64,000 nucleotides of DNA from an uncultured Verrucomicrobiae bacterium (GCA_963749035.1 CAVVKW010000004.1:594531-658530); one strand, 5' to 3'. Shown: positions 26,020 through 61,199, numbered from the stretch's first letter. The notes: a model not told the origin generated them from the sequence alone. Translations and numbers: made by a program.

Positions 26020-26265
26020 TGACACGACAACACACGCGAACGGATTGATGGTCTTTTGCAGGTTTGCCCGTGGCATACAGGTTGCCGTCGTGGCGGTCGA
26101 TGAGCTCTCCAGCAACGGAAGTGTGAATATCTCGGTGGAGGTGAAGGTGAAGGGACGCTGATCTAAAGGAGGTGAATATCAATATGACTGCTGAACGCCT
26201 TGCAGACGATTAGGCACCCATTTTGCTTTCTGGCGTTCGCATACGAAGACTCCGCATTTCATTCT
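26020..26265 (-). repeat. cassette family A, copy A1 (truncated by IS630)
   Basis: Begins mid-element at TGACACGACAACACACGCG, directly after the IS630 TA. Confidence 0.8.
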
Positions 26266-26391
26266 GTCCATCGTCAAGCTCTGCCACCCTGATCGGGCGT
26301 GCGAGCTACTGATTCTGATCTACTGGAAGAAGTGGTTCCGAGCTTCTGAGACGGAACGCGGCTAGGGGTTGGCTACAGCGTCTTGTTCGGC
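26266..26391 (-). repeat. attC site 8 (ATC-type box on family A side)
   Basis: Boxes gtccatc/gttcggc, 126 bp. Confidence 0.85.
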
Positions 26392-26637
26392 ATCTTTTCC
26401 TTGCCTTGTGCGGCTATTATCTGCGCTTCGCAAATGTTTGTTTGGGTGAGCGAATCGGTAAAGATCTATGCTAGATGTCAATGTAACAAACAATAAAAGG
26501 GCTGGGGCAAACGAGCGTGTAAAGGCTAAGATATTTCCCTGCGAGAATATGATAAACAAGCACGTTGCACCAATTACTAGGATAGAGCGGACAACTATTC
26601 CCAATTCATGGTCGGTGAAGGTCTTCATGGAGTCCAT
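26362..26637 (-). CDS. cassette ORF, small membrane protein
   Basis: 91 aa with 2 TM segments. Tail AEQDAVANP. Confidence 0.6.
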   Translation of the reverse strand: MDSMKTFTDHELGIVVRSILVIGATCLFIIFSQGNILAFTRSFAPALLLFVTLTSSIDLYRFAHPNKHLRSADNSRTRQGKDAEQDAVANP

Positions 26638-26710
26638 TTCGTCTAGGGTTTGTTTAGCTGGTCAATAATATAAAGTGTGTTATCGAAATCATTTCTACGG
26701 TTGCCCAGAT

Positions 26711-26836
26711 GCCGAACGTCAAGCTCAGTCACCCCGATCGGGCGTCCGAGCTACTGGTTGTGATCAACTGCAATCTGGTCGTCCGCCAACCCCGAGAGCG
26801 AAGCGGCTAGGGGTTGACTGCAGCGCCTTGTTCGGC
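26711..26836 (-). repeat. attC site 9
   Basis: Boxes gccgaac/gttcggc, 126 bp. Confidence 0.9.
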
Positions 26837-26998
26837 CCGCATTTCAGTATCTTGAAGTTCGAAGTTCAGACCCCCGAAGAATCTCGCCCACAGATTGTAT
26901 GTCCAAGCAAGAACGAAGCCGGAGACGAGCCCGAAGATCGTATTAATGACCGGATGCAAAAATACTAACTTATAATCTATTGTATTTGAAAATGTCAT
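26807..26998 (-). CDS. cassette ORF, small membrane protein
   Basis: 63 aa. Tail AEQGAAVNP. Overlaps the end of the upstream 59-aa ORF. Confidence 0.5.
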   Translation of the reverse strand: MTFSNTIDYKLVFLHPVINTIFGLVSGFVLAWTYNLWARFFGGLNFELQDTEMRAEQGAAVNP

Positions 26999-27149
26999 TG
27001 AACTGAATCCGGAAAGAGTAACTGTTACCGCCCTCTTTCATCGGTGTAGTGAGGAGAAAGACGATTCCGAGGAGTGATCCAAATAAACCAAAACAAGCGA
27101 GGAGAAGGGCAAGTTTGGATGGCGAAATGCGTGTTAGTTGCGTTTTCAT
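26970..27149 (-). CDS. cassette ORF, 59-aa membrane peptide
   Basis: Read by hand: ATG at 27149, MKTQLTRISPSKLALLLACFGLFGSLLGIVFLL... Below the track's 60-aa cutoff. Confidence 0.4.
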   Translation of the reverse strand: MKTQLTRISPSKLALLLACFGLFGSLLGIVFLLTTPMKEGGNSYSFRIQFNDIFKYNRL

Positions 27150-27162
27150 AATTTTGATAATA

Positions 27163-27289
27163 GCCGAACGTCAAGCTCAGCCACCCTGAGCGGATGACCG
27201 AGCCCACCCCTAGGTGAGCTGCGAGTAGCGGGACCGAGCAACCCCAGCCAGCGAAGCGGCTAGGGGTTGGCTGCAGCGCCTTGTTGGGC
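27163..27289 (-). repeat. attC site 10
   Basis: Boxes gccgaac/gttgggc, 127 bp. Confidence 0.9.
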
Positions 27290-27739
27290 CTCATTACTTT
27301 GTAGATAGCGTGGATTCTTCAATGCTTCAAGATAATCGGATTTACGATAGAATGGCCAATACCGAACAGGTCCATCTTCAAGTAAAACGGGCGGCGTCCT
27401 GCAAAATGGGTGGATTCGGAAAGTCGAGTTGATGAATCCGCGAATTCCTCTTTTGATCTGCCACTCGTATTCGAGATCTGTCTTCGGAAATAGGATTGCT
27501 CTTGCAAAGTCCTTTCGGATCCCGTCAGTTAATGCGTGCTCGCCGCTGAGCGTATGCCGATGGAAATCGTCATATTGAGGCCAAACTAAGCGATGTTCAA
27601 TTTCTGAGATGGCGGGATCGCCGCTGCTGCCGATGACACTCTGCTCACACGATTCTTCAAACTCGCGATTCGTAATTTAACCGGTCGCCAAATGGCGCAG
27701 GTTCTCAGCAAGGCGGTTTCGGTCGGTTCGTGATATCAT
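27260..27739 (-). pseudogene. cassette gene with in-frame TAA at codon 21
   Basis: Hand translation: MISRTDRNRLAENLRHLATG-TAA-ITNREFEES...RYLQSNEAQQGAAANP. A single frame is open across the whole cassette apart from that stop. Confidence 0.45.
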
Positions 27740-27748
27740 AATTTCTTG

Positions 27749-27874
27749 GCCCAACGTCAAGCTCAGCCACCCCGAACGGGCGTGCGAGCTACTGATTGTG
27801 ATCTGCTGAAGGTGACGCTTTCGAACGTCTGAAACGGAACGCGGCTAGGGGTTGGCTGCAGCGTCTTGATGGAC
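27749..27874 (-). repeat. attC site 11 (GAT-type box)
   Basis: Boxes gcccaac/gatggac, 126 bp. Confidence 0.85.
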
Positions 27875-28185
27875 AGAATTTTATGGAACCGCCGCCTGGC
27901 AATTGAGTTATCAAACCTTCGAAGGATGCGCTCATCGAGTGACACGACAACACACGCGAACGGATTGATGGTTTTTTGCAGGTTTGCCCGTGGCATACAG
28001 GTTGCCGTCGTGGCGGTCGATGAGCTCTCCAGCAACGGAAGTGTGAATATCTCGGTGTAGGTGGCGGTGAAGGGAAGCTGATCCAAAGGAGGTGAATATC
28101 AATATGACTGCTGAACGCCGTGCAGACGATTACGCACCCATTTTGCTTTCTGGCGTTCGCATACGAAGACTCCGCATTTCATTCT
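27875..28185 (-). repeat. cassette family A, copy A2
   Basis: Shared ~310-370-bp unit. Hairpin arms at 27930-27951 and 28001-28025. Confidence 0.85.
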
Positions 28186-28310
28186 GTCCATCGTCAAGCT
28201 CAGCCACCCTGAACGGGCGACCGAGAATCTGGAAAAGGTGAACTGCCGGAAAGAGTCACCTCAACCCGGGCGCGAAGCGGCTAAGGGTTGGCTGCAGCGC
28301 CTTGTTCGGC
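28186..28310 (-). repeat. attC site 12
   Basis: Boxes gtccatc/gttcggc, 125 bp. Same attC body as sites 30 and 45. Confidence 0.85.
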
Positions 28311-28595
28311 TGCATTCTTAGTATTTTTCAAGGTCCGTTCAATCCGTGGATTGATTACAAATCCCCAATAAAGAAATACTGACATAATTATTAACGGAAG
28401 CTCCAAAAGCCAAAAATAGTTCAAAGACAGCAGATCAAGAATCGATGGTATTCCAAATGCAAAAATTAAAAGTGGCAATCGAAGCCACATAATGAATGGC
28501 TCTCTTATCTCAAGATTTCTCATAATGGAGCGGATCTCTGACGGCGATTTGTCAGATAATTCTTTTATCTGGCTATGACGCAAAATGAATTTCAT
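28281..28595 (-). CDS. cassette ORF, 104-aa membrane protein (copy 1 of 3)
   Basis: MKFILRHSQIKEL... with 2 TM segments. Tail AEQGAAANP. Near-identical copies at 38099 and 46820. Confidence 0.7.
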   Translation of the reverse strand: MKFILRHSQIKELSDKSPSEIRSIMRNLEIREPFIMWLRLPLLIFAFGIPSILDLLSLNYFWLLELPLIIMSVFLYWGFVINPRIERTLKNTKNAAEQGAAANP

Positions 28596-28602
28596 TGTAA
28601 TA

Positions 28603-28728
28603 GCCGAACGTCAAGCTCAGCCACCCCGAACGGGCTTCCGAGCTACGGGTTGTGATCTACTGGAAGAAGTGCTTCCGAGCATCTGAGACGGAACGCGGCT
28701 AGGGGTTGGCTGCAGCGTCTTGATGGAC
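28603..28728 (-). repeat. attC site 13
   Basis: Boxes gccgaac/gatggac, 126 bp. Confidence 0.85.
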
Positions 28729-29045
28729 AGAATTTGATTGAACCGCCGCCTGGCAATCGAGCTATCAAACCTTCGAACGATGCGCTCATCGAGTGACACG
28801 ACAACACACGCGAACGGATTGATGGTCTTTTGCAGGTTTGCCCGTGGCATACAGGTTGCCGTCGTGGCGGTCGATGAGCTCTCCAACAACGGAAGTGTGA
28901 ATGTCTCGGTGGAGGTAAAGATGAAAATGAAGGTAAGCTGATCCAAAAGAGGTAAATATCAATATGACTGCTGAACGCTTTGCAGACGATTACGCACCCA
29001 TTTTGCTTTCTGGCGTTTGCATACGAAGACTCCGCACTTCCTTCT
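28729..29045 (-). repeat. cassette family A, copy A3
   Basis: Appears identical to copy A6 (45918-46234), including the preceding attC. Confidence 0.85.
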
Positions 29046-29171
29046 GTCCATCGTCAAGCTCAGCCACCCTGAACGGGCGTGCGAAATGCGGAACGCAGTT
29101 CCGCCAGGAAGCGGCTACGAGTTGGGTGTGTCAGCACGCGGCTAGGGGTTGGCTGCAGCGCCTTGTTAGGG
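29046..29171 (-). repeat. attC site 14
   Basis: Boxes gtccatc/gttaggg, 126 bp. Confidence 0.85.
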
Positions 29172-29483
29172 CCGTATCTGTATGTAGCTTCCGGCTGTTG
29201 AATCACGGATGGCAGATCTGATTTCTTCGATGCGGACTTCGAGAAGTTCAATGAGTGTAAAAGGGAGTTCCACGATTGAGACGGTTCGATTTGATAGATT
29301 CTGCTGATATCGAAGATTCTTGTCACCCGTGACAAGAACATCGAATTGACCATCAATGAGCTCCACCAATGAGCCATTTTTTACTCCAGTCCAACCTTTA
29401 AATCGAACGGTCACGACGTCGAATTCTTGCAACAAAAGTCGAAGGTCGATGGGCAAATTTTCGTCAAGAATGACTGTCTTCAC
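29166..29483 (-). CDS. DUF5615-like (PIN-like) putative toxin
   Basis: GTG start at 29483 (VKTVILDENLPIDLR...), aligned to the paralog at 61194..61511. The stop TAA lies in the R box CCCTAAC. Confidence 0.65.
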   Translation of the reverse strand: MKTVILDENLPIDLRLLLQEFDVVTVRFKGWTGVKNGSLVELIDGQFDVLVTGDKNLRYQQNLSNRTVSIVELPFTLIELLEVRIEEIRSAIRDSTAGSYIQIRP

Positions 29484-29676
29484 GAACCAACTTAAGGAAC
29501 TCGAGGGCGTCGTCCCGATCAACGGAAGGAAACTGTGCAAGAAATGAGTCAACCGAGTGACCTGCATCGATGTATTCAAGCAACGATTGAGCGATCACCC
29601 GCGTATCGCGAAATACGACTGTTCCACCCAGAATCTCTGGATCGGAATGAACTGGACTGTGATCAAGAGTTACCAT
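29464..29676 (-). CDS. DUF433-like putative antitoxin
   Basis: 70 aa. SDPEILGGTVVFRDTRV...LLEYIDAGHSVDSFLAQFPSV pattern. Overlaps the downstream gene by 20 nt. Confidence 0.65.
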   Translation of the reverse strand: MVTLDHSPVHSDPEILGGTVVFRDTRVIAQSLLEYIDAGHSVDSFLAQFPSVDRDDALEFLKLVREDSHS

Positions 29677-29720
29677 TGCGTGATATTACCGATTGCGAGT
29701 CTTTCTGCAACTGTATTGGG

Positions 29721-30287: not shown

Positions 30288-30413
30288 ACCGAACGTCAAG
30301 CTCAGCCACCCCGAACGAGCTTCCGAGGTATGGATTGATGTTTGTTGGAGGAAGAGCTTTCGAACGTCGGAAACGGAGGGCGGCTAGGGGTTGGCTGCAG
30401 CGCCTTGTTAGAC
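30288..30413 (-). repeat. attC site 16
   Basis: Boxes accgaac/gttagac, 126 bp. Confidence 0.9.
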
Positions 30414-30731
30414 TGGTCAGGATAAAATAGTGAGCTGCGGAGAAGATAATCGAAAACTGCGGACTAGCTCATCGTGTGCCACAACAATGTACGCAGTCGA
30501 GAAACTGATCTCTTTCAGGATCTCATGGTCGTATACAAGTGACAGTTGTGGCACTCGATGAGCCTCCCACAGCAGGGGGAACGTTGAATGCGTGATAGGC
30601 TCCCGTGCCGAAGGATTTCACGGATGCTACGATCTGGACAACTATTCTTTATGCTCGTTCTTTAATCGCCCGATTAATTGTTCGCAATCGAATGCCTGTT
30701 GGAAACGGAAGTCGCAATGCAGTATCAGGAA
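30414..30731 (-). repeat. cassette family C, copy C2
   Basis: Hairpin arms at 30467-30485 and 30545-30563. No frame is conserved with C3-C5. Confidence 0.8.
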
Positions 30732-30857
30732 GTCGAACGTCAAGCTCAGCCACCCCGTACGGGCGTTCGAGCTACGGGTTGTGAACTGCTGGAAGAATCG
30801 CTTTCGAGCATCTGAGACGGAACGCGGCTAGGGGTTGGCTGCAGCGTCTTAATGGAC
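30732..30857 (-). repeat. attC site 17
   Basis: Boxes gtcgaac/aatggac, 126 bp. Confidence 0.85.
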
Positions 30858-31228
30858 AGAATTTCATCGAGTCGCCGCCTGGCAATCGAGCTATCAAACC
30901 TTCGAATGATGCGCTTATCGAGTGACACGACAACAAACGCAAACGGATTGATGGTCTTTCGGAGGTTTGCCCGTGGCATACAGGTTGCCGTCGTGGCGGT
31001 CGATGAGCTCTCCAGCAACGGAAGTGTGAATGTCTCGGTGGAGGTGAATGTGAAGGTGAAGGTGAAGGTGAAGGTGAAGGTGAAGGTGAAGGTGAAGGTG
31101 AAGGTGAAGGTGAAGAAACGCTGATCCAAAGGAAGTGAATATCAATATGACTGCTGAACGCCTTGCAGACGGTTACGCACCCATTTTCCTTTCTGGCGTT
31201 CGCATACGAAGAATCCGCATTTCATTCT
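30858..31228 (-). repeat. cassette family A, copy A4 (expanded hexamer tract)
   Basis: Same unit as A2, with 12 GGTGAA-type units. Confidence 0.85.
31043..31114. repeat. (GGTGAA)n microsatellite, 12 units (10 perfect)
   Basis: Counted directly: perfect units from 31055 to 31114. Confidence 0.95.
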
Positions 31229-31354
31229 GTCCATCGTCAAGCTCAGCCACCCCGATCGGGTGTGCGAGCTACTGTTTGTGATCTACTGAAAGAATCGCTT
31301 TCGAGCATCTGAGACGGAACGCGGCTAGGGGTTGGCTGCAGCGCCTTGTTCGAC
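31229..31354 (-). repeat. attC site 18
   Basis: Boxes gtccatc/gttcgac, 126 bp. Confidence 0.85.
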
Positions 31355-31721
31355 TGGATTGGGTTGTCGTCCGGGAAAGTCATCGAGCTACTGGGGGCGT
31401 CGTATACTTTAGTTCAAATCGCGAAGCCACTTCAATGAATGGACGAATCCGGAGAGAAGGGTTCGACTCGGAAGGCATATATTTCACGAGCGTGGAACGG
31501 ATGAGGGCTGGATGTGACCGGAACGAGTAGGGATCAAGCTACAAATCTTTTTTTCATCCGCCGGAGGCTGCTCACGGACATCGGTCGAAATCCGGTAGAG
31601 CCGACCTTGCCTCCGGCGTGGCCTCTCAAGTCGTCGCAGTCTGAACCAATGGTAGTTTGCCGGGTTTGCCGTCAGCTACAGAAGCCCGGATTTAATCATT
31701 CGCCGGAGGCTGCATCATGAA
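31355..31721 (-). repeat. cassette family B, copy B2
   Basis: Family B unit. Confidence 0.8.
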
Positions 31722-33069: not shown

Positions 33070-33435
33070 TGTATCGGCTGGTGGTCCGGGAAAGTCATCG
33101 ATCTACTGGGAGCGTCGTATACTTTGGTTCAAATCGCGAAGCCACTTCATTGTTTCGAGGAATCCAAAGAGAAGTGCTTGACTCGGAAGGCATATATTTC
33201 ACGAACGCGGAAGGGATGAGGGCTGGATGTGGCTGGAATGAACAGGGACCAAGCTACGAATTTTTTTTCATCCGCCGGAGGCTGCTCACGGACGTCGGTC
33301 GAAATCCGGTGGAGCCGATCTTGTCTTCGGGGTGGCCTCTCAAGTCGTCGCAGTCTGAACCAATGGTAGTTTGCCGGGTTTGCCGTCAGCTAGAGAACAC
33401 CGAATTTACTCATCCGCCGGAGGCTGCATCATGAA
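33070..33435 (-). repeat. cassette family B, copy B3
   Basis: Family B unit. Confidence 0.8.
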
Positions 33436-40293: not shown

Positions 40294-40419
40294 AGCGAAC
40301 GTCAAGCTCAGCCACCCCGAACGGGCGTGCGAGCATCTGTTTGTGATCTACTGAAAGAATCGCTTTCGAGCATCTAAGACGGAACGCGGCTAGGGGTTGG
40401 CTGCAGCGTCTTGATGGAC
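40294..40419 (-). repeat. attC site 34
   Basis: Boxes agcgaac/gatggac, 126 bp. Confidence 0.85.
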
Positions 40420-40736
40420 AGAATTTTATTGAACCGCAGCCTGGCAATTGAGCTATCAAACCTTCGAACGATGCGCTCATCGAGTGACACGACAACACAC
40501 GCGAACGGATTGATGGTCTTTTGCAGGTTTGCCCGTGGCATACAGGTTGCCGTCGTGGCGGTCGATGAGCTCTCTAGCAACGGAAGTGTGAATATCTCGG
40601 TGTAGGTAAAGGTGAAGGTGGAGGGACGTTGATCCAAAGGAAGTGAATATCAATATGGCTGCTGAACGCCTTGCAGACAATTACGCACCCATTTTGCTTT
40701 CTGGCGTTCGCATACGAAGAATCCGCATTTCATTCT
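40420..40736 (-). repeat. cassette family A, copy A5
   Basis: Family A unit. Confidence 0.85.
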
Positions 40737-40862
40737 GTCCATCGTCAAGCTCAGCCACCCCGAACGGGCGATCGAGCTACTGGTCGTGATTTACTGGAGG
40801 TAAGGCGTGGATAAAAGCAATCTGTGGAGCGGCTAGGGGCTGGCTGCAGCGCCTTGTTCGGT
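40737..40862 (-). repeat. attC site 35
   Basis: Boxes gtccatc/gttcggt, 126 bp. Confidence 0.85.
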
Positions 40863-41511: not shown

Positions 41512-41637
41512 ACCGAACGTCAAGCTCAGCCACCCCGAACAGGCATGCGAGTTATGGGCTGTGATCTACTGTAGGGAAATCGTGGATGAAAGTTGGTAGT
41601 GTCGCGGCTAGGGGTTGGCTGCAGCGCCTTGTTAGAC
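41512..41637 (-). repeat. attC site 36
   Basis: Boxes accgaac/gttagac, 126 bp. Confidence 0.9.
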
Positions 41638-41957
41638 TGGTCAGGATAAAATGGTGAGCTGCGGAGAAGATGATCGAATAACTGCGGACTAGCTCATCGT
41701 GTGCCACAACAATGTACGCAGTCAAGAAACTGATCTCTTTCAGGATAACCCGGTCGTATACAAGTGACAGTTGTGGCACTCGATGAGCCTCCTATAGCAG
41801 GCGGAACGTTGAATGCGTGATAGGCTCCCGTGCCGAAGGCTTCCACGGGTGCTACATGATGGAAAGTTATTCTCTTATGCTCGTTCTTTGATCGCCCGAT
41901 CAATTCTTCGCAATCGAATGTCTGTTGGAAACGGAAGTTGCAACGCAGTATCAGGAA
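41638..41957 (-). repeat. cassette family C, copy C3
   Basis: Family C unit. Confidence 0.8.
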
Positions 41958-42083
41958 GTCTAACGTCAAGCTCAGTCACCCCAATCGGGTGTCCGAACGG
42001 CTAGTAGTGATCATCTGCAATCTGGTCGTGCGCCAACCCCGAGAGCGAAGCGGCTAGGGGTTGACTGCAGCGCCTTGTTCGGT
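41958..42083 (-). repeat. attC site 37
   Basis: Boxes gtctaac/gttcggt, 126 bp. Confidence 0.9.
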
Positions 42084-45791: not shown

Positions 45792-45917
45792 ACCGAACGT
45801 CAAGCTCAGCCACCCCGAACGGGCTTCCGAGCTACGGGTTGTGATCTACTGGAAGAAGTGCTTCCGAGCATCTGAGACGGAACGCGGCTAGGGGTTGGCT
45901 GCAGCGTCTTGATGGAC
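45792..45917 (-). repeat. attC site 43
   Basis: Boxes accgaac/gatggac, 126 bp. Confidence 0.85.
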
Positions 45918-46234
45918 AGAATTTGATTGAACCGCCGCCTGGCAATCGAGCTATCAAACCTTCGAACGATGCGCTCATCGAGTGACACGACAACACACGC
46001 GAACGGATTGATGGTCTTTTGCAGGTTTGCCCGTGGCATACAGGTTGCCGTCGTGGCGGTCGATGAGCTCTCCAACAACGGAAGTGTGAATGTCTCGGTG
46101 GAGGTAAAGATGAAAATGAAGGTAAGCTGATCCAAAAGAGGTAAATATCAATATGACTGCTGAACGCTTTGCAGACGATTACGCACCCATTTTGCTTTCT
46201 GGCGTTTGCATACGAAGACTCCGCACTTCCTTCT
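45918..46234 (-). repeat. cassette family A, copy A6
   Basis: Duplicate of A3. Confidence 0.85.
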
Positions 46235-46360
46235 GTCCATCGTCAAGCTCAGCCACCCCGAACGGGCGTGCGAGCTATGGATTGTGATCTGATGAAGGTG
46301 ACGCTTCCGGACGTCTGAGACGGAGCGCGGCTAGGGGTTGGCTGCAGCGCCTTGTTCGAC
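46235..46360 (-). repeat. attC site 44
   Basis: Boxes gtccatc/gttcgac, 126 bp. Confidence 0.85.
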
Positions 46361-47664: not shown

Positions 47665-47790
47665 ACCGAACGTCAAGCTCAGCCACCCCGATCGGGCGTT
47701 CGAGCTACGGGTTGTGAACTGCTGAAAGAATCGCTTTCGAGCATCTGAGACGGAACGCGGCTAGGGGTTGGCTGCAGCGTCTTGATGGAC
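47665..47790 (-). repeat. attC site 47
   Basis: Boxes accgaac/gatggac, 126 bp. Confidence 0.85.
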
Positions 47791-48101
47791 AGAATTTCAT
47801 CGAGTCGCCGCCTGGCAATCGAGGTATCAAACCTTCGAACGATGCGCTCATCGAGTGACACGACAACACACGCGAACGGATTGATGGTCTTTTGCAGGGT
47901 TGCCCGTGGCATACAGGTTGCCGTCGTGGCGGTCGATGAGCTCTCCAGCAACGGAAGTGTGAATATCTCGGTGTAGGTAAACGTGAAGGGAAGCTGATCC
48001 AAAGGAGGTGAATATCAATATGACTGCTGAACGCCTTGCAGACGATTACGCACCCATTTTGCTTTCTGGCGTTCGCATACGAAGACTCCGCATTTCATTC
48101 T
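47791..48101 (-). repeat. cassette family A, copy A7
   Basis: Family A unit. Confidence 0.85.
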
Positions 48102-48226
48102 GTCCATCGTCAAGCTCAGTCACCCCGATCAGGTGCAGAGGAAAGTGGAGTGATCAACCGCAATCTGGTCGTCCGCCAACCCCGAGAGCGAAGCGGCTAG
48201 GGGTTGACTGCAGCGCCTTGTTCGAC
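48102..48226 (-). repeat. attC site 48
   Basis: Boxes gtccatc/gttcgac, 125 bp. Confidence 0.85.
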
Positions 48227-48936: not shown

Positions 48937-49062
48937 GTCGAACGTCAAGCTCAGCCACCCCGAACGAGAGTTCAAACGACTGACTGTGATCTGCTGAAGG
49001 TGACGCTTTCGAACGTCTGAAACGGAACGCGGCTAGGGGTTGGCTGCAGCGTCTTGATGGAC
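48937..49062 (-). repeat. attC site 49
   Basis: Boxes gtcgaac/gatggac, 126 bp. Confidence 0.85.
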
Positions 49063-49378
49063 AGAATTTGATTGAACCGCCGCCTGGCAATTGAGCTATC
49101 AGACCTTCGAACGATGCGCTCATCGAGTGACACGACAACACACGCGAACGGATTGATGGTCTTTTGCAGGTTTGCCCATGGCATACAGGTTGCCGTCGTG
49201 GCGGTCGATGAGTTCTCCAGCAACGGAAGTGTGAATATCTCGGTGTAGGTAAAGGTGAAGGTGAAGGGACGCTGATCTAAAGGAAGGGAATATCAATATG
49301 ACTGCTGAACGCCTTGCAGACGATTGGGCACCCATTTTGCTTTCTGCGTTCGCATACGAAGAATCCGCATTTCATTCT
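49063..49378 (-). repeat. cassette family A, copy A8
   Basis: Family A unit, with a 1-nt deletion in the 3' part relative to the other copies. Confidence 0.85.
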
Positions 49379-49504
49379 GTCCATCGTCAAGCTCAGCCAC
49401 CCCGAACGGGCGTGCGAGCTATGGATTGTGATCTACTGGAGGTGGTGCTTTCGAACATCTGAAACAGAAAGCGGCTAGGGGTTGGCTGCAGCGCCTTGTT
49501 CGAC
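49379..49504 (-). repeat. attC site 50
   Basis: Boxes gtccatc/gttcgac, 126 bp. Confidence 0.85.
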
Positions 49505-49868: not shown

Positions 49869-49994
49869 GTCGAACGTCAAGCTCAGCCACCCCGAACGGG
49901 CTTCCGAGCTATGGATTGATGTTTGCTGGAGGAACAGCTTTCGAACGTCGAAAACGGAACGCGGCTAGGGGTTGGCTGCAGCACCTTGTTAGAC
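49869..49994 (-). repeat. attC site 51
   Basis: Boxes gtcgaac/gttagac, 126 bp. Confidence 0.9.
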
Positions 49995-50314
49995 TGGTCA
50001 GGATAAAATGGTGAGCTGCGGAGAAGATGATCGAAAAACTGCGGAGTAGCTCATCGTGTGCCACAACAATGTACGCAGTCGAGAAACTGATCTCTTTCAG
50101 GATATCCCGGTCGTATACAATTGACAGTTGTGGCACTCGATGAGCCTCCCATAGCAGACGGAACGTTGATTGCGTGATAGGCACCCGCGCCGAAGGCTTC
50201 TACGGGTGCTACATTATGGAAAGTTATTCTCTTATGCTCGTTCTTTGATCGCCTGATTAATTCTTCGCAATCGAATGCCTGTTGGAAACGGAAGTTGCAA
50301 CGCTGCATCATGAA
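49995..50314 (-). repeat. cassette family C, copy C4
   Basis: Family C unit. Confidence 0.8.
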
Positions 50315-50443
50315 GTCGAACGTCAAGCTCAGCCACCCCGAACATGGGACCGAACTTGCATGGTGGACGTTGAATGGAATGGCGGAAGTCAGAACAACTG
50401 CGCCGTGCGGCGGCTAGGGGTTGGCTGCAGCGCCTTGTTCGAC
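50315..50443 (-). repeat. attC site 52
   Basis: Boxes gtcgaac/gttcgac, 129-bp subtype. Confidence 0.9.
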
Positions 50444-50807
50444 TGTATGGGATGGTCGCCCGGGAAAGTCATCGAGCTATTGGGGGCGTCATCTACTTTG
50501 GTTCAAATCGCGAAGGCACTTTAATGATTGGACGAATTCAAAGAGAAGGGTTCGACTTGGCAGGCATATATTTACGACCGCGGAAGTGATGAAGGCTGCA
50601 TGTGGCCGGAACGAGCGGGGATCAAGCTACGAATTTTTTTCATCCGCCGGAGGCTGCTGACGGACATCGGTCGAAATCCGGTGGAGCCGATCTTGTCTTC
50701 GGCGCGGCCTCTCAAGTCGTCGCAGTCTGAACCAATGGTAGTTTGCCGGGTTTGCCGTCACCTACAGGAGCCCGGATTTAATCATCCGCCGGAGGCTGCA
50801 TCATGAA
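50444..50807 (-). repeat. cassette family B, copy B8
   Basis: Family B unit. Confidence 0.8.
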
Positions 50808-50933
50808 GTCGAACGTCAAGCTCAGCCACCCCGAACGGGCTTGCGAGCTACTGGTTGTGAACTGCTGAACGTGACGCTTTCGAACATCTGAAACAGAACG
50901 CGGCTAGGGGTTGGCTGCAGCGCCTTGTTCGAC
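50808..50933 (-). repeat. attC site 53
   Basis: Boxes gtcgaac/gttcgac, 126 bp. Confidence 0.9.
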
Positions 50934-51299
50934 TGTATCGGATGGCGGTCCGGAAAGGTGTTCGAGCTACACTGGGAATTGTATTCGTCTTACCAAATCG
51001 CGAAGACACTTTCATGTTTCAGCGAACCCTAAGAAAAGGGTTCGACTCGGAAGGCATATATCTCGCGAACGCGGAAGGGATGAGGGCTGGATGTGGCCGG
51101 AACGACCGGGGATCAAGCTACAATTCTTTTTTCATCCGCCGGAGGCTGCTGACGAACATCGGTCGGAATCCGGTGGAGCCGATCTTGTCTTCGGGGTGGC
51201 CTCTCAAGTCGTCGCAGTCTGAACCAATGGTAGTTTGCCGGGTTTGCCGTCAGCTACAGAATACCGAATTCCCTGATCCGCCGGAGGCTGCATCATGAA
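50934..51299 (-). repeat. cassette family B, copy B9
   Basis: Family B unit, directly adjacent to B8. Confidence 0.8.
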
Positions 51300-51424
51300 G
51301 TCGAACGTCAAGCTCAGCCACCCCGAACGGGCTTGCGAGCACTGTTTGTGATCTACCTGAAAAATCGCTTTCGAGCGTCTGAGACGGAACGCGGCTAGGG
51401 GTTGGCTGCAGCGCCTTGTTCGGT
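51300..51424 (-). repeat. attC site 54
   Basis: Boxes gtcgaac/gttcggt, 125 bp. Confidence 0.9.
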
Positions 51425-51440
51425 CTGTATTGGTTTCGTG

Positions 51441-51819: not shown

Positions 51820-51945
51820 ACCGAACGTCAAGCTCAGCCACCCCGAACGGGTGTCCGAACTACTGGTTGAAATCTGCTGGAGGTGACGCTTTCGAACATC
51901 TGAAACAGAAAGCGGCTAGGGGTTGGCTGCAGCGTCTTGATGGAC
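51820..51945 (-). repeat. attC site 55
   Basis: Boxes accgaac/gatggac, 126 bp. Confidence 0.85.
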
Positions 51946-52256
51946 AGAATTTTATGGAACCGCCGCCTGGCAATTGAGCTATCAAACCTTCGAACGATGC
52001 GCTCATCGAGTGACACGACAACACACGCGAACGGATTGATGGTCTTTTGCAGGTTTGCCCGTGGTATACAGGTTGCCGTCGTGGCGGTCGATGAGCTCTC
52101 CAGCAACGGAAGTATGTATGTCTCGGTGTAGGTAAAGGTGAAGAGACACTGATCCAAAGGAGGTGAATATCAATATGACTGCTGAACGCCTTGTAGACTA
52201 TTACGGCCGGATTTCATTCCTTCGCCCTCGCATATGGAGAATCCGCATTTCATTCT
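51946..52256 (-). repeat. cassette family A, copy A9 (one end diverged)
   Basis: Family A unit. Region 52190-52240 differs from the other copies. Confidence 0.8.
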
Positions 52257-52382
52257 GTCCATCGTCAAGCTCAGCCACCCCGAACGGGTGTCCAAACTAC
52301 TGGTTTAAATCTGCTGGAGGTGACTCTTTCGAACATCTGAGACGGAACGCGGCTAGGGGTTGGCTGCAGCGCCTTGTTCGAC
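52257..52382 (-). repeat. attC site 56
   Basis: Boxes gtccatc/gttcgac, 126 bp. Confidence 0.85.
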
Positions 52383-52745: not shown

Positions 52746-52871
52746 GTCGAACGTCAAGCTCAGCCAACCTGAACGGGCGGGCGAAGAGCGGAACGTAGTT
52801 CCACCAAGTAGCGGTTACGAGTTGGATGTGTCAGCACGCGGCTAGGCGTTGGCTGCAGCGTCTTGTTCGGC
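52746..52871 (-). repeat. attC site 57
   Basis: Boxes gtcgaac/gttcggc, 126 bp. Confidence 0.9.
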
Positions 52872-53125: not shown

Positions 53126-54048
53126 TTAGTCTGTTTTGGTTGTTAGGTTATTGAGTGAGTTTTCGTATTCGAGGGGTGATTGGTAGTCGAGGGAGCTATG
53201 GAGTCGGCGTGGATTGTAGAAGGTTTCGATGTAGTCGAAGAGCATCGCGTCGGCTTGGGCTCGGGTGGCCGGAGGGCCAGCGTGGAAGCATTCGGTTTTG
53301 AGAGTGGACCAGAACGACTCCATGGCGGCGTTATCATAGCAGTTGGCGCGTCGGCTCATGCTCGGCGTCACGCCGTGGGAGTTGAGCAGGGAGCGGAAAG
53401 CCCCAGCAGCATACTGGCTGCCGCGGTCGGAATGGTGGAGTTGTGGACGAGTTCCTGAGAGCAAGACGGCGCGGCTGAAGGCGCTTTCGACGAGGGTGCT
53501 CTCCATGGTTGATCCCGTTTTCCAGCCAACGATCCGACGGGAAGCGAGGTTCATTTCGGCAGCCAGATAATGCCAGCCTTCATCGGTGGGTAGGTAGGTG
53601 ATGTCAGCCACCCATGTCTGCCCAGGGGTAGACGAGGTCGTGTTGGTCGTATCGGACAAGAGCCGATTCGGGGCGATGGGATGAGGGTGGCAGCTGTCGG
53701 TCGTGCGGGGCCGATAACGACCCTTGCGCAAGGCACATAGTCCTTTCTGGGACATCAAGCGCGAGATACGTCGTCGCCCGCAGACTTGCCCTTCTCGATC
53801 AAGGACGACGCGCAGCCGACGGGTCCCGTAGGTTCGGCGGTTCTCGTGGAAAGCCGCTTCGATCCGATCACTCAGATCGGCGTCTTCGCGCTGGCGCAGA
53901 CCTTCGGTCTTTTTCCCGTGGGCGTAGTAGCCGCTGCGACTGACTTCCAGAGCCAGGCAAAGCTCCTTGAGGGTAAAGCTGTTCTTTTCCATCGTCTCGA
54001 TCAGCGCAAAGCGTTCCACGGTTCCTGACCCAAAATGGCGCAGGCTTT
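53126..54048 (-). CDS. IS3-family transposase OrfB
   Basis: Same protein as copy 1 with 2 substitutions in the track ORFs (D/N, Q/R). The 5' coordinate is approximate (frameshift product). Confidence 0.8.
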
Positions 54049-54351
54049 TTTTAAAATGTCTCGTTGGCGGGTGGTGAACTCCAGTTCCCTTCTCAGGCGA
54101 GCGTTCTCGCTGGCGAGGTCCTGGGGCCGCCCCGCCGCCGGGACGGGTCCTCCTCCCCCCTCCGGACCCGTCCCGGCGGCGGTTCTCCCGTAAAGCTTCT
54201 TCCACCTGCCCAGGCTCCACGTCGAGATCCCCAGCTCAAGCGCTAGTTGTGTCGCGCTTCGCGTTCCGCTTTCCAGCATTTCCACGGCGCTTCGTTTGAA
54301 CTCTTCGTCAAATCGTCGCCCCTTGTTCGTTTCTCTTGGTTTTTCGTTCAC
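54001..54351 (-). CDS. IS3-family transposase OrfA
   Basis: Identical to the protein encoded at 21535..21885. Confidence 0.85.
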   Translation of the reverse strand: MNEKPRETNKGRRFDEEFKRSAVEMLESGTRSATQLALELGISTWSLGRWKKLYGRTAAGTGPEGGGGPVPAAGRPQDLASENARLRRELEFTTRQRDILKKACAILGQEPWNALR

Positions 54352-54465: not shown

Positions 54466-54591
54466 GCCGAACGTCAAGCTCAGCCACCCCGAACGGGTGT
54501 TCGAACGACTGACTTTGATCTCCTGGAAGTGACGCTTTCGATCACCTGAAACGGAGCGCGGCTAGGGGTTGGCTGCAGCGTCTTGATGGAC
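54466..54591 (-). repeat. attC site 58
   Basis: Boxes gccgaac/gatggac, 126 bp. Confidence 0.85.
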
Positions 54592-54932
54592 AGAATTTCA
54601 TCAAGTCGCCGCCTGGCAATTGAGCTATCAAACCTTCGAACGATGCGCTCATCGAGTGACACGACAACACACGCGAACGAATTGATGGTCTTTTGCAGGT
54701 TTGCCCGTGGCATACAGGTTGCCGTCGTGGCGGTCGATGAGCTCTCCAGCAACGGAAGTGTGAATGTCTCGGTGTAGGTAAAGGTGAAGGTGAAGGTGAA
54801 GGTGAAGGTGAAGGTGAAGGGAAGCTGATCCAAAGGAGGTGAATATCAATATGACTGCTGAACGCCCTGCAGACGATTACGCACCCATTTTGCTTTCCGG
54901 CGTTCGCATACGAAGACTCCGCATTTCATTCT
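54592..54932 (-). repeat. cassette family A, copy A10
   Basis: Family A unit with an expanded hexamer tract. Confidence 0.85.
54771..54818. repeat. (GGTGAA)n microsatellite, 8 units (6 perfect)
   Basis: Counted directly: perfect units from 54783 to 54818. Confidence 0.95.
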
Positions 54933-55056
54933 GTCCATCGTCAAGCTCAGCCACCCCGAACGGGCGACCGCAAACTACTGGTGATCAACTGCCGGTAGCG
55001 GATCCGCAACCCCGAGAGCGAAGCGGCTAGGGGTTGGCTGCAGCGCCTTGTTCGGC
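54933..55056 (-). repeat. attC site 59
   Basis: Boxes gtccatc/gttcggc, 124 bp. Confidence 0.85.
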
Positions 55057-57335: not shown

Positions 57336-57411
57336 GATTATTTAGGTAAGCAGTCGATTGGCACGTTTCAAGGTCGGTTTATCACAAACTATATCATCCA
57401 CCGGAGGTTGA

Positions 57412-57538
57412 GCCGAACGTCAAGCTCAGCCACCCTGAGCGGGTGAACGAGCCAACCCTGAGGTGAGCTGCCAATAGCGGGACCGATCAACCCCAGCCAG
57501 CGAAGCGGCTAGGGGTTGGCTGCAGCGCCTTGTTCGGC
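57412..57538 (-). repeat. attC site 63
   Basis: Boxes gccgaac/gttcggc, 127 bp. Confidence 0.9.
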
Positions 57539-57808
57539 TGTATTCTTTCCGCGAATCAAACTGAAAATTATTCCCGTGATAGCGGCAACAACAAACGAGC
57601 ACAATGCTATAGTTAGGATCGCCGCCGGATTGGATGGGTTGTCCATTCTCAAAAGATAGTATCCGGCAATTGGCGATATTACAGTGGTAATCGCTGTGGC
57701 TGCAACGCTGCTCCAGATAAGCTTCTGCATCCAGAAATGCGTAATTACAGACGATGCAATTGAAATGCCAAGTAGGGCAGCGATGAAGTAGATTTCTTCG
57801 ATGATCAT
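57509..57808 (-). CDS. cassette ORF, 99-aa integral membrane protein
   Basis: 3 TM segments. Tail NTAEQGAAANP. Confidence 0.7.
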   Translation of the reverse strand: MIIEEIYFIAALLGISIASSVITHFWMQKLIWSSVAATAITTVISPIAGYYLLRMDNPSNPAAILTIALCSFVVAAITGIIFSLIRGKNTAEQGAAANP

Positions 57809-57937
57809 AGTTGTAAGGTTTAGTTAGTCGTATGTGGTGTGAATTCTCTAACTGAGGTATCCTAGCGACAAAGTTAATCTACTGTGGTTGGTATGCACGT
57901 CTTTTATTATCAAATTCCGCCGGAGGATGCTTATTGA

Positions 57938-58063
57938 GCCGAACGTCAAGCTCAGCCACTCCGAACGGGTGATCGAGCTATAGGTCGTGATCTACTGGAG
58001 GAAGATCGTGGATGAACGCTGGCAGCAGCGCGGCTAGGGGTTGGCTGCAGCGCCTTGTTCGCT
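57938..58063 (-). repeat. attC site 64
   Basis: Boxes gccgaac/gttcgct, 126 bp. Confidence 0.9.
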
Positions 58064-58867
58064 CCGACGGCGCACAAACGTCCACAGCATCCAGACGACA
58101 AGGACGGACGCGAGAAAACTGAAAGCGGTAGGCTCGGCAATAGTTTGCATCACCGCGGATGAGTCGAGTGCCTCGTTATAGATCCTCAGATCATCAAGAG
58201 TTCCTGCGAAAAATTCAAATGCACCAGCAGTTGAGCCTAAGGTAGATGCCGAGCTGTCTGTTGTTGAGGTCGTTGTCTGGGGGAACGAGATCGATCCGGG
58301 AAGTAGAAGCTGAAGTTCTCCATTGAAGTAAATATCAATCCTATCGTTCGCATAATCGATGACGCCAGCGATATGAATCCACTCGTCCAGTGCTACCTGG
58401 CTGCTCGTCACCCTGGACTGGAAAGATGATGAATCTGATGCACGCCCGGCGACCTCGACGAAGCCATCTCCGGAGATGAACATGCCTCCGCGACTCTCGA
58501 ATGAATTGTTTGTGGTGCTTATAAATGCAAGGGATCCAATGTCAGATGGATATGCATCGATCTTGATCCATGTAGTAAATGACGCGCCCGAGGCGTTGTT
58601 CAAGAGGTCGTTATTCTGCCCGTTTGGTTCTAGCGAAACATATGAGCTGCTGCCAGATAGACGTAACGCGAAAGAACCCACTTTCCCGGGGACATATTGG
58701 GCATTGATGATAGTTCCGTCGTCGACCGGTGACGATGTTCCGTCAGCTACTGCGGAATCAAAGGCAATGGATCCAGATCCCTCCTCAAATCCATATTGGG
58801 CGACGAGACCGGCATATCCAGACGATGTGAATAGAACGAACAGCAAAAAGGGTAGTTGAGATTTCAT
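58034..58867 (-). CDS. LamG/concanavalin-like domain protein with PEP-CTERM-like anchor
   Basis: Signal peptide. AQYGFEEGSG...GKVGSFALRLSGSSSYVSL (LamG-type). C-terminal AEP + TM + RRR, then the attC tail SEQGAAANP. Confidence 0.72.
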   Translation of the reverse strand: MKSQLPFLLFVLFTSSGYAGLVAQYGFEEGSGSIAFDSAVADGTSSPVDDGTIINAQYVPGKVGSFALRLSGSSSYVSLEPNGQNNDLLNNASGASFTTWIKIDAYPSDIGSLAFISTTNNSFESRGGMFISGDGFVEVAGRASDSSSFQSRVTSSQVALDEWIHIAGVIDYANDRIDIYFNGELQLLLPGSISFPQTTTSTTDSSASTLGSTAGAFEFFAGTLDDLRIYNEALDSSAVMQTIAEPTAFSFLASVLVVWMLWTFVRRRSEQGAAANP

Positions 58868-58889
58868 GGGTTCAGAATTGTATTATATG

Positions 58890-59015
58890 AGCGAACGTCA
58901 AGCTCAGCCAACCCGAACGGGCTTCCGAGGTATGGATTGATGTTTGTTGGAGGAAGAGCTTTTGAATGTCGAAAACGGAGTGCGGCTAGGGGTTGGCTGC
59001 AGCGCCTTGTTAGAC
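58890..59015 (-). repeat. attC site 65
   Basis: Boxes agcgaac/gttagac, 126 bp. Confidence 0.9.
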
Positions 59016-59334
59016 TGGTCAGGATAAAATGGTGAGCTGCGGAGAAGATGATCGAATAACTGCGGACTAGCTCATCGTGTGCCACAACAATGTACGCAGT
59101 CGAGAAACTGATCTCTTTCAGGATCTCCCGGTCGTATACAAGTGACAGTTGTGGCACTCGATGAGCCTCCCACAGCAGGGGGAACGTTGAATGCATGATA
59201 GGCTCCCGTGCCGAAGGCTTCCACGGGTGCTACGATCTGGACAACTATTCTTTATGCTCGTTCTTTAATCGCCCGATCAATTCTTCGCAATCGAATGCCT
59301 GTTGGAAACGGAAGTTGCAATGCAGTATCAGGAA
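59016..59334 (-). repeat. cassette family C, copy C5
   Basis: Family C unit. Confidence 0.8.
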
Positions 59335-59460
59335 GTCTAACGTCAAGCTCAGTCACCCCGATGTGGTGTTTGAGCAACCAGTGAAAATCAACAGCAAGAA
59401 GAGGGTCCGCCAACCCCGAGAGCGAAGCGGCTAGGGGTTGACTGCAGCGCCTTGTTCGGC
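59335..59460 (-). repeat. attC site 66
   Basis: Boxes gtctaac/gttcggc, 126 bp. Confidence 0.9.
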
Positions 59461-59475
59461 TGCATCTTCTCACCG

Positions 59476-59739
59476 TCAGAATAAGTCTGAATGTGTTCCT
59501 GTTCGTTCTAGACGGAGTTCGTCTGGTGAAACCTGATAGATTAAGATCCAGTCTGGTTCTACGTGGCAGTCTCGTCTGCCTTTCCAAGGACCAGTCAATG
59601 AGTGATCTCGGTAGCGAGGAGGCAGTGCTTGACCAGATATAAGGATCTCGATGACTGTCTTGATCTTCTCAAGGTCCTTGCCTCTCTTTGTTTGTTTCTT
59701 GATGTCTTTCTTGAATTGTGAGGTCTGACTTACGGTCAC
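59476..59739 (-). CDS. yafQ: YafQ/RelE-family toxin
   Basis: FKKDIKKQTKRGKDLEKI...RDHSLTGPWKGRRDCHVEPDWILIY...TGTHSDLF. Confidence 0.75.
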   Translation of the reverse strand: MTVSQTSQFKKDIKKQTKRGKDLEKIKTVIEILISGQALPPRYRDHSLTGPWKGRRDCHVEPDWILIYQVSPDELRLERTGTHSDLF

Positions 59740-59996
59740 TTTTTCCAGGACGCGTAGAGGTCATCGGTGTTTCCGAAGGTCTCAATATCTTCACCCTTAT
59801 CGCTTTTTGCCAGGACCTCGGAAGTCAGGGCATTTGGAACGTGAAGTTCGAGAGGAAACTCTTGGCGAAGTGCAATCTGTTTGTAGAAAAGCCGGATCGC
59901 TTCCGTGGGCGTCATGCCCAAAGTATCCAGGATCGCCTCGGTTGCCTTCTTGGTAGCGGAATCGATCCGAGCGTGAATTATTGCTGATTGCGACAT
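59736..59996 (-). CDS. dinJ: DinJ/RelB-family antitoxin
   Basis: IHARIDSATKKATEAILDTLGMTPTEAIRLFYKQIA...FPLEL. 4-nt overlap with the toxin. Confidence 0.72.
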   Translation of the reverse strand: MSQSAIIHARIDSATKKATEAILDTLGMTPTEAIRLFYKQIALRQEFPLELHVPNALTSEVLAKSDKGEDIETFGNTDDLYASWKK

Positions 59997-60042
59997 GCTA
60001 GAACTGTATCACGGGTGATACACGATGCAATGAATTCTTATA

Positions 60043-60168
60043 GCCGAACGTCAAGCTCAGCCACCCCGAACGGGTGTTCGAACGACTGAATGTGATCTGC
60101 TGAAGGTGACGCTTCCGAGCGTCTGAGACGGAACGCGGCTAGGGGTTGGCTGCAGCGCCTTGTTAGGC
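60043..60168 (-). repeat. attC site 67
   Basis: Boxes gccgaac/gttaggc, 126 bp. Confidence 0.9.
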
Positions 60169-60173
60169 TCGTA

Positions 60174-60566
60174 TTATTTTCTCGGATCCGGCGACAAAAA
60201 GACAGATTGGATATTGTCAGACACATCAACGATCTTCCAATCTAGTGGTCGCTGACTGTCAGATCCTCGAGAAACAAAATATCTCGTCTGATACGAAGTC
60301 CCATTTATGAATTGTATGAGATATGGTTGCCCTCCGTGTTTCGATGTGATCTTGAAACTACTCTGGTCTATTTCGAATGGTTGCAGTTCTCCAAATGATA
60401 TAAGTCTGGAAATCTCTCGTTTCAGAAAAGCTCTTTCAGATGATTCATTTGTGGCTCTTCGGTAAAACACGAAGTAGTCGCCGAAAATAAGCGCCAAGAT
60501 TAAGAAGACAACGATGATGAACCCAAATATGAGGCCGGAACGAACTTCTGATAAATCCTTTTTCAT
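60174..60566 (-). CDS. cassette ORF, membrane-anchored 130-aa protein
   Basis: N-terminal TM GLIFGFIIVVFLILALIF. Own stop. Confidence 0.68.
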   Translation of the reverse strand: MKKDLSEVRSGLIFGFIIVVFLILALIFGDYFVFYRRATNESSERAFLKREISRLISFGELQPFEIDQSSFKITSKHGGQPYLIQFINGTSYQTRYFVSRGSDSQRPLDWKIVDVSDNIQSVFLSPDPRK

Positions 60567-60636
60567 TCGTCAGGCTGTGCGCAACTCGTTGCAAGATCTA
60601 CTAGGAAATTCCGATTGATTCTCCGCCGGAGGTTGA

Positions 60637-60762
60637 GCCTAACGTCAAGCTCAGCCACCCCGAACGGGCGTGCGAGCTACTGGTTGTAATCTACTGAAAG
60701 AATCGCTTTCGAGCATCTGAGACGGAACGCGGCTAGGGGTTGGCTGCAGCGTCTTGATGGAC
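60637..60762 (-). repeat. attC site 68
   Basis: Boxes gcctaac/gatggac, 126 bp. Confidence 0.85.
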
Positions 60763-61073
60763 AGAATTTGATTGAACCGCCGCCTGGCAATTGAGCTATC
60801 AAACCTTCGAACGATGCGCTCATCGAGTGACACGACAACACACGCGAACGAATTGATGGTCTTTTGCAGGTTTGCCCGTGGCATACAGGTTGCCGTCGTG
60901 GCGGTCGATGAGCTCTCCAGCAACGGAAGTGTGAATATCTCGGTGAAGGTGAAGGTGAAGGGACGCTGATCCAAAGGAGGTGAATATCAATATGACTGCT
61001 GAACGCCTTGCAGACGATTACGCACCCATTTTGCTTTCTGGCGTCCGCATACGAAGAATCCGCATTTCATTCT
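60763..61073 (-). repeat. cassette family A, copy A11
   Basis: Family A unit. Confidence 0.85.
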
Positions 61074-61199
61074 GTCCATCGTCAAGCTCAGTCACCCCGA
61101 TCGGGTGTCCGATCTACTGGTTGTGATCAACTGCAAACTGATCGTCCGCCAACCCCGAGAGCGAAGCGGCTAGGGGTTGACTGCAGCGCCTTGTTAGGG
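61074..61199 (-). repeat. attC site 69
   Basis: Boxes gtccatc/gttaggg, 126 bp. Confidence 0.85.

Follow-up and report, generated by a model that had tools for sequence, protein, structure and literature searches.

Can an integron cassette still move when the AAC/GTT triplet at its ends has been replaced? This question is raised by a 64,000-nucleotide stretch of the genome of an uncultured Verrucomicrobiae bacterium (GCA_963749035.1, CAVVKW010000004.1:594531-658530; hereafter the window), in which lies the distal portion of the cassette array of a chromosomal integron. A first-pass annotation of this DNA singled out an eleven-copy cassette family, family A, in which the triplet is exchanged for a mutually complementary ATC/GAT pair, and proposed a relaxed specificity of the resident integrase (IntI), a second recombinase, or amplification by another route. 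The analysis presented here indicates that family A members are, in all likelihood, true integron cassettes, moved by the ordinary integrase on a natural variant of the attC site changed at position 2 of the triplet.

Family A carries a compensated change of the cleavage triplet

Parsing of the region 18769-63127 with two conserved attC anchors identified 72 attC sites of ~126 bp each. Read on the plus strand, the heptamer left of the site ends in AAC in 60/72 cases and in ATC in 11/72, the remaining one being the first site, truncated by an insertion sequence (IS); the heptamer right of the site begins with GTT in 62/72, with GAT in 9/72 and with AAT in 1/72. Clustering of the segments between attC sites delineated family A (n = 11), family B (n = 10), family C (n = 4), family D (n = 3) and two pairs. 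Family A boxes read GTCCATC/GATGGAC, as opposed to AAC and GTT in the other 61 attC sites (AAC on the left in 60/61, the IS-truncated site excepted, and GTT on the right in 62/62). The high-coordinate boundary, ATTCTGTCCATCGTCAAGCTCAGCC, has 11 occurrences, none with more than one mismatch; TTCTGTCCATC is invariant in all 11 boundaries of this kind. The low-coordinate boundary, GCAGCGTCTTGATGGACAGAAT, was found 10 times, nine exact and one with AATGGAC at 30851, the missing copy being the one truncated by an IS630-type insertion; for both boundaries, shuffled sequence gives 0 occurrences. Family A thus departs from the AAC/GTT triplet that characterizes attC sites, with ATC in 11/11 boxes and GAT in 9/10, the last being AAT, and the first bases of its cassettes are complementary to their own R'' box at 12/12 positions. 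The alignment of all 72 sites confirms family A as an exception and bears out the first-pass annotation on the replaced triplet, on the ends shared by the copies, on the canonical boxes of the other cassettes and on the 12-bp complementarity.

The copies comprise ~310-370 nt of content plus their own 126-nt attC, are 90-100% identical and are scattered across the array; in the window they occur in one orientation and inside the array only. In A4, the AATGGAC box has lost its base pairing with the docking C, making the A4 attC doubly mismatched. A4 also carries the longest hexamer repeat of the family. This hexamer (GGTGAA, plus strand) varies from ~3 to 13 copies between cassettes, which looks like a slippage-type length polymorphism.

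The first-pass annotation had the cassettes in reversed orientation: the array reads on the minus strand, and family A owns the low-coordinate attC. All cassette open reading frames (ORFs) with Pfam domains (S51 peptidase, methyltransferase, Laminin_G_3, DUF5677) lie on the minus strand. Folding and direct pairing place the extrahelical bases on the 3' arm of the folded plus strand, as expected of the recombining bottom strand. A related genome that shares this attC type has its intI beyond the high-coordinate end of the array, with transcription leading away from the cassettes, and a canonical G↓TT attI (the arrow marking the crossover) separates gene and array. Among family A copies, the identity of the attC centre is 0.84 on the low side and 0.71 on the high side, compared with 0.70 for random pairs, and the low-side attC carries a GCAGCGTCTT signature. 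Since the low-coordinate attC co-varies with family A, GCAGCGTCTT-GATGGAC is the cassette's own R'' box, not the neighbour's crossover. On the top (minus) strand, the cassette reads 5'-ATGGACAGAAT ... content ... ATTCTGTCCATC(R'')-AAGACGCTGCAGCC ... GGCTGAGCTTGACG-3', and the crossover upstream of it is G↓ATGGAC, or GTCCAT↓C on the bottom (plus) strand, at the high-coordinate end. The previously proposed exchange at G↓AT fits the junctions, but it had been placed on the neighbour's side.

After the cassette's own attC, the junction of the excised circle is expected to read ...GAGCTTGACG↓ATGGACAGAAT. Folded as DNA, this circle form of the attC displays a perfect 13-bp basal stem (-28.1 kcal/mol, versus -19.4 for the in-array form), unpaired GTCAA/CGTCTT spacers, and extrahelical C and T on the plus-strand 3' arm, forming the palindrome typical of attC sites. 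The GCAGCGTCTT (T) spacer variant, typical of the family A attC, is also present in two sites that precede a canonical GTT (26381-26391 and 52861-52871), and these could be traces of earlier recombination with A-type sites.

Probable movement of family A and triplet tolerance of integron integrases

A3 and A6 share 100% identity over a single cassette unit (28605-29069 and 45794-46258), with different neighbours on both sides. Because the identity covers exactly one unit, it represents a footprint of cassette-level movement. The 11 copies are followed downstream by 10 different cassettes, one of which (D12) recurs, and are preceded upstream by four B, one D and six unique cassettes. Content and its own attC are hence found together in different contexts, and subfamilies are also common to two metagenome-assembled genomes (MAGs).

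The first-pass annotation knew of no precedent for a compensated change in this triplet. For natural sites this stands as far as the literature was searched: our limited search, which is no proof of absence, found no report of a natural GAT-cored attC, GTT was present in every natural integron known to Frumerie et al. (PMC2811028), and later papers still depict AAC as the conserved triplet of attC. It does not stand for engineered sites, as compensated GAT/ATC attC sites have been built and perform at least as well as the wild type. Frumerie, Ducos-Galand, Gopaul and Mazel (NAR 2010, PMC2811028) mutated each triplet base together with its complement and found that only the first triplet pair (G/C) must agree between partner sites. 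Relative to wild type, recombination reached 1.9x for attCaadA7-GAT with attI1, 4.6x for the wild-type attC with attI1-GAT and 3.2x for GAT with GAT; the GAT site was cleaved in vitro. The corresponding values were 1.0, 0.96 and 0.71 for GGT, and 0.15 and 0.04 for GCT, and an uncompensated GTT/ATC site fell from 2.2e-3 to 6e-6 (PMC2811028). Loot et al. describe insertion of cassettes by IntI1, IntI2 and IntI3 at genomic attG sites of consensus G↓WT, whose hotspots require CRGM (consensus CAGA) at +6 to +9 (bioRxiv 10.1101/2022.09.11.507474).

IntI proteins from the related arrays share 49% identity with IntI1, the query sequence being validated by the alignments, and match the integron-integrase model TIGR02249 at 417-440 bits. 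They share Y37, R112, K171 and H281 with IntI1, have A at position 30 as in VchIntIA, and keep the catalytic Y312; the first four residues and position 30 are among the cleavage-site contacts listed by Frumerie et al. (PMC2811028). The attI of these arrays has the canonical G↓TT. The relaxed triplet specificity suggested for the resident IntI is supported as such, but it is no peculiarity of this enzyme: triplet tolerance is a general property of integron integrases, and the relatives' IntI, which keep all the triplet-contact residues, give no hint of altered specificity.

How frequent the variant is, and where it comes from, can be read from related genomes. A search with the attC pattern ANCGTCAAGCTCAGCCACCC gave 104 matching stretches, nearly all of them tiles of very large arrays from five "uncultured Verrucomicrobiae" MAGs of one Danish sample (MFD03250). 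Among 850 distinct cassettes from the window and these related MAGs, 790 have GTT/AAC, 34 have GAT/ATC, to which the AAT copy adds, and 6 have GGT/ACC; uncompensated singletons are few, and GCT occurs only as such. In these sequences, the variants found in nature are precisely the two changes at position 2 with which IntI1 recombines at wild-type level. The GGT/ACC cassettes form a second compensated, non-canonical and multi-copy family in a different Verrucomicrobiae MAG, starting with G↓GTCGCC and bearing a GACGACC R'' box, with content size classes of 268 and ~380 nt and no obvious kinship to family A.

The GAT cassettes of other genomes are homologues of family A, equal in length and ~71-75% identical over the centre. 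Their subfamilies have GATGTGC/GCCCATC, GATGGAC/GTCCATC and GATGGGC/GCCAATC boxes, with one more whose R'' has drifted to GTCCACC, and the 11-12-bp terminal pairing co-varies between them (AU to GC at two columns). In a neighbour-joining tree, the GAT cassettes of three genomes form one clade adjoining the canonical family C group; the true canonical homologues number 11, and a third group (GTTCGGC/GCCGAAC, 22 sequences) was discarded as a false match of the loose hairpin search, GCTTATCG...CGAAGAGC. One GAT clade beside canonical homologues indicates that the variant arose once, inside a mobile lineage; after the change, this lineage multiplied in three genomes or more, which a dead site would hardly explain. 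The length, downstream motifs and central hairpin of family A recur, with canonical GTTAGAC/GTCTAAC boxes, in family C, in its divergent relative (19950-20387) and in cassettes from two other MAGs; family C is likewise multi-copy, with the same attC type. Two compensated changes separate the boxes of A and C, T.A to A.T at position 2 and A.T to G.C at position 4, pointing to selection on R'-R'' complementarity over long times. In the family A lineage, the co-varying boxes suggest that R-box pairing is kept by selection on the folded site.

On the top strand, G↓TT has become G↓AT in R' and AAC has become ATC in R'', a compensated substitution at the middle triplet pair. Both changed bases lie inside the cassette, one among the two bases that open it and the other in the R'' box that belongs to it, and consequently travel with it. 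In the mechanism that we propose, they would pair perfectly in the excised circle, extending the stem to 12 bp; the integrase would cleave the folded bottom strand between triplet bases two and three (AT↓C), only the G/C pair would have to match the partner site, and replication would resolve the junction. Since the enzyme would not read the middle base, the variant would leave insertion at a canonical attI unaffected or even favour it. Once integrated, a copy would leave flanking attC sites with a central triplet mismatch, T.T or A.A. In the array, the attC of the upstream neighbour has ATC opposite GTT (T.T) and that of family A has AAC opposite GAT (A.A), so that 21/72 sites are affected; R boxes flanking family A show 3.8-4.2 of 7 Watson-Crick pairs versus 5.3 elsewhere, always with the central mismatch. 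ATC opposite GTT is the configuration that loses ~370-fold with IntI1 (PMC2811028). Excision of family A and its neighbours is probably much rarer than insertion of the circle, and rare excision may help the copies accumulate. Family B has canonical boxes yet 10 copies, so the mismatch need not explain copy number.

Several points weigh against movement by the ordinary integrase. The resident enzyme lies outside the window, in which neither intI nor attI was found, the low end being IS-truncated and the array leaving the window at the high end; the integrase evidence is taken from related genomes, and the biochemical figures come from another system, IntI1 with attCaadA7 and Vibrio cholerae repeat (VCR) substrates. 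Gene conversion between paralogous copies could also yield the A3/A6 identity. Four of the 11 copies share an upstream family B, making some amplification by block duplication likely, and a ~370-fold excision loss per site would leave the top abundance of family A unobvious. An invariant 24-mer from inside family A had no exact match in public genome contigs or metagenome contigs, nor had a 22-mer of the conserved hairpin arm in public metagenome contigs; mobility is hence read from the array sequence and not from a strain-level presence/absence comparison. From the anatomy of the cassettes, the duplication of a whole unit, the single clade and the contact residues kept in the relatives, we nevertheless infer that the resident integrase does the work.

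The alternative that survives best holds that family A copies are immobile relics, GAT/ATC having killed integrase activity in an array grown by homologous recombination, unequal crossing-over and gene conversion. The ~25-nt identical ends of the attC sites would permit such homology-driven events, and the recurrence of the B-upstream-of-A pair (4 times), a direct tandem B-B duplication (50410-51430, period 492) and the triplet-centre mismatch in sites flanking A fit this view. Drift in dead sites, however, would not maintain the compensation of both ends, which is seen in 10/10 intact copies here and again in 34 cassettes from elsewhere. The extended stem co-varies between subfamilies, the clade spread and multiplied after the change, the downstream neighbours are nearly all distinct, and a compensated GAT site is fully active with IntI1 (PMC2811028). 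We consider this alternative unlikely; amplification by a non-integron route, as the first-pass annotation had envisaged, found no evidence and is not needed.

Perfect 12-bp inverted repeats, a short non-coding body and a high copy number would also suit a miniature inverted-repeat transposable element, moved into or between attC sites by a transposase such as those of the IS630 and IS3 elements in the window. Yet the flanks (..TCTT and GTCA..) display no target-site duplication, removal of the element would join two attC halves without restoring a site, and the element is always accompanied by one particular attC. Moreover, the homologous canonical cassettes have their R boxes where this element ends, its ends bear no relation to the IS630 terminal repeats (TACCATTTCTAT), and its 11 copies keep a single orientation within the array, making such an origin very improbable. 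Finally, a second site-specific recombinase with GAT specificity, acting independently of IntI, for which the sole argument is a negative one, the usual description of AAC/GTT as conserved, is barely credible: tblastn with IntI1 detected no tyrosine recombinase in the window, junctions between A and canonical cassettes share the G crossover and L boxes, so that both kinds recombine together, IntI1 already handles GAT (PMC2811028), leaving no need for another enzyme, and the GGT/ACC variant in another genome is easier to explain by a single tolerant enzyme than by several specialised enzymes.

Cassette content and array context

Every A and C copy contains a hairpin of ~100 nt, with invariant arms and ~55 variable nt at the apex, an equivalent of which is found at 20122-20227. 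Across families, three of its base pairs have changed in a compensatory manner (CACGAC/GTCGTG, CACAAC/GTTGTG, CACGAA/TTCGTG), and two G.T pairs favour the top strand. Cassettes of the A/C type represent 16/71 cassettes in the window. Integron cassettes may here carry a structured element that has not been described before, either an RNA or a single-stranded DNA; Rfam 15 gave no match at gathering score over the whole window, with chance-level matches only (E ~5) in one A copy. Upon inspection, a hammerhead-like reading of CUCGAUGAG was rejected, its core and stems being misfit and unconserved. The unproven idea of a second attC (outer arm GCTCATC/GATGAGC, two stems around the 4x4 loop) was likewise set aside, the hairpin having no extrahelical bases and its loop being fully paired in family C.

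A protein product of family A was sought in six frames and three subfamilies and rejected, with ratios of non-synonymous to synonymous polymorphism (pN/pS) of 0.13-2.9, no consistent frame, stops and indels. ORF1, which starts at the ATG of the box, is broken in 4/10 copies; ORF2 has a strong Shine-Dalgarno sequence and is not conserved in other GAT subfamilies. On the plus strand, a small ORF of ~44 codons (MTAERLADDYAPILLSG...; 28086-28230 and equivalents) is preceded by the ribosome-binding site AAAGGAGGTGA, 7 nt and ATG, and continues through the ATC box beyond the cassette, into the adjacent attC; 9/11 copies have this ORF intact, and it is unconserved in other GAT subfamilies. Neither a sigma-70 promoter nor an intrinsic terminator consensus was found inside family A. 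The longest ORFs of family B, which adjoins family A four times, had no Pfam match, and a look-up by protein retrieved no database record for the S51 peptidase of the cassette between A7 and A8.

An IS3-type element at ~18750 truncates the array on its low-coordinate side. The window contains three IS3-family (rve) elements (18215-18750, 21666-22760 and 53126-54220); the two inner copies are identical in length and lie inside the cassettes numbered C4 and C57 in opposite orientations, which would permit inversion or deletion of ~30 kb of the array. G+C is ~0.60 in the flanking chromosome (window 1-18700) versus ~0.50 in the array (18769-64000). The MgtE gene in this flank has an identical counterpart on a 10.5-kb contig (JBARCF010000184.1, GCA_049793755.1) that ends in the same IS3 element; as short MgtE contigs stop at this element, short-read assemblies of this organism lose the array. 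In a related MAG, attC-dense tiles (L003-L097) of contig CAWHTR010000007.1 extend over ~1,120,000-1,248,000 and 1,312,000-1,440,000, ~120-130 kb each, and these arrays would rank among the largest integron arrays described. One intI was located at 4473-6167 of tile L027 and a second on another contig (L088, 5681-7015), both ORFs with apparent long N-terminal extensions.

Table 1 Coordinates of family A cassettes and associated features (window positions unless a tile is named)
Feature	Coordinates	Strand	Remarks
Distal part of chromosomal integron cassette array	18769-63127	-	72 attC sites; plus strand is the recombining bottom strand; array runs beyond window end
A1, family A remnant (5' part)	26023-26271	-	rest removed by IS630-type insertion (~24882-26022)
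A2 cassette	27755-28191	-	content 27875-28185; own attC 27749-27874; R'' GATGGAC on plus strand 27868-27874
A3 cassette	28609-29051	-	identical to A6
A4 cassette	30738-31234	-	R'' AATGGAC (30851-30857); 13 GGTGAA repeats (31037-31115)
A5 cassette	40300-40742	-	
A6 cassette	45798-46240	-	same sequence as A3, other context
A7 cassette	47671-48107	-	
A8 cassette	48943-49384	-	5' part with 1-nt deletion
A9 cassette	51826-52262	-	5' part with divergent patch
A10 cassette	54472-54938	-	~10 GGTGAA repeats (54771-54828)
A11 cassette	60643-61079	-	
Non-canonical crossover box, bottom strand 5'-GTCCAT↓C-3'	28186-28192	+	R' box of upstream neighbour's attC; first six bases belong to A2
Further crossover boxes (start positions)	26266, 29046, 31229, 40737, 46235, 48102, 49379, 52257, 54933, 61074		
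Conserved internal hairpin of A2	27930-28026	.	GCTCATCGA / 4x4 internal loop / CACGAC ... GTCGTG / TCGATGAGC
GGTGAA repeat tracts	31037-31115, 54771-54828, 26134-26153, 40599-40624, 49242-49267, 60942-60961		
IS630-family insertion sequence	24882-26022	-	DDE_3 transposase 24890-25960; terminal repeats TACCATTTCTAT..., unrelated to family A ends
Family B	23299-23663, 31355-31721, 33070-33435 and seven more		ten copies, ~365 nt content, canonical GTCGAAC boxes
Family C cassette	30294-30737	-	content homologous to A, same hairpin, canonical GTTMGAC/GTCTAAC boxes
Other family C copies	41518-41963, 49875-50320, 58896-59340		
Divergent family C relative	19950-20387		
GGT/ACC copies	L023 4737-5005; L041 5745-6013; L056 928-1308, 5484-5752; L032 3217-3596; L078 (CAVRCI010000002.1)		

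Known systems and possible consequences for cassette arrays

The closest parallel to family A is provided by the engineered attCaadA7-GAT and attCVCRd-GAT sites (PMC2811028), which carry the same G1-A2-T3/A1'-T2'-C3' change and keep the G/C docking pair and the structural features. Those are laboratory constructs used with IntI1, whereas family A is natural, multi-copy and persistent in a Verrucomicrobiae chromosomal integron, with a stem extended to 12 bp and canonical sites throughout the surrounding array. The array itself resembles sedentary chromosomal integrons such as the Vibrio cholerae superintegron with its VCR, in its size, its long homogeneous ~126-nt attC with R, L, spacer and extrahelical bases, its repeated cassette families and its cassettes read away from intI; family A differs in its ATC/GAT triplet, its host phylum and its non-coding content. 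The novelty is the natural counterpart of a triplet change already tolerated in the laboratory, not a new recombination system.

A further likeness concerns attG sites. The start of family A, G↓ATGGACAGA, combines G↓WT with CAGA at +6 to +9 and agrees with attG at the two features compared, the cleavage point and the validated right motif (bioRxiv 10.1101/2022.09.11.507474). The attG targets are chromosomal sites of double-stranded DNA, cleaved centrally, whereas in family A the motif belongs to the R' half of an attC folded from a single strand. All GAT subfamilies retain CAGA, and CRGM is found in only 5/614 canonical cassette ends. It is conceivable, though rather unlikely, that the GAT core, CAGA, the 12-bp stem and the hairpin body constitute an adaptation of selfish, non-coding "sticky" cassettes that insert easily and excise poorly. 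Efficient insertion would then stem from the perfect, attG-hotspot-like R box of the circle, and poor excision from the two mismatched-triplet attC sites created by each integrated copy. If so, copies would ratchet up and partition the array into hard-to-excise blocks. As a further possibility, the G↓AT..CAGA junction upstream of each copy might offer new cassettes a place to insert within the array, as double-stranded DNA and in the manner of attI or attG.

AAC/GTT weighs heavily in cassette-finding models, and attC finders and manual annotation keyed on this triplet may mis-set boundaries around such cassettes. Family A also offers a natural system in which to follow the effect of a cleavage-triplet mismatch in hybrid sites on excision and array stability. 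Taken together, these data indicate that the middle triplet pair flips in nature to A.T, and elsewhere to G.C, without loss of evolutionary success, matching the tolerance profile of IntI1.

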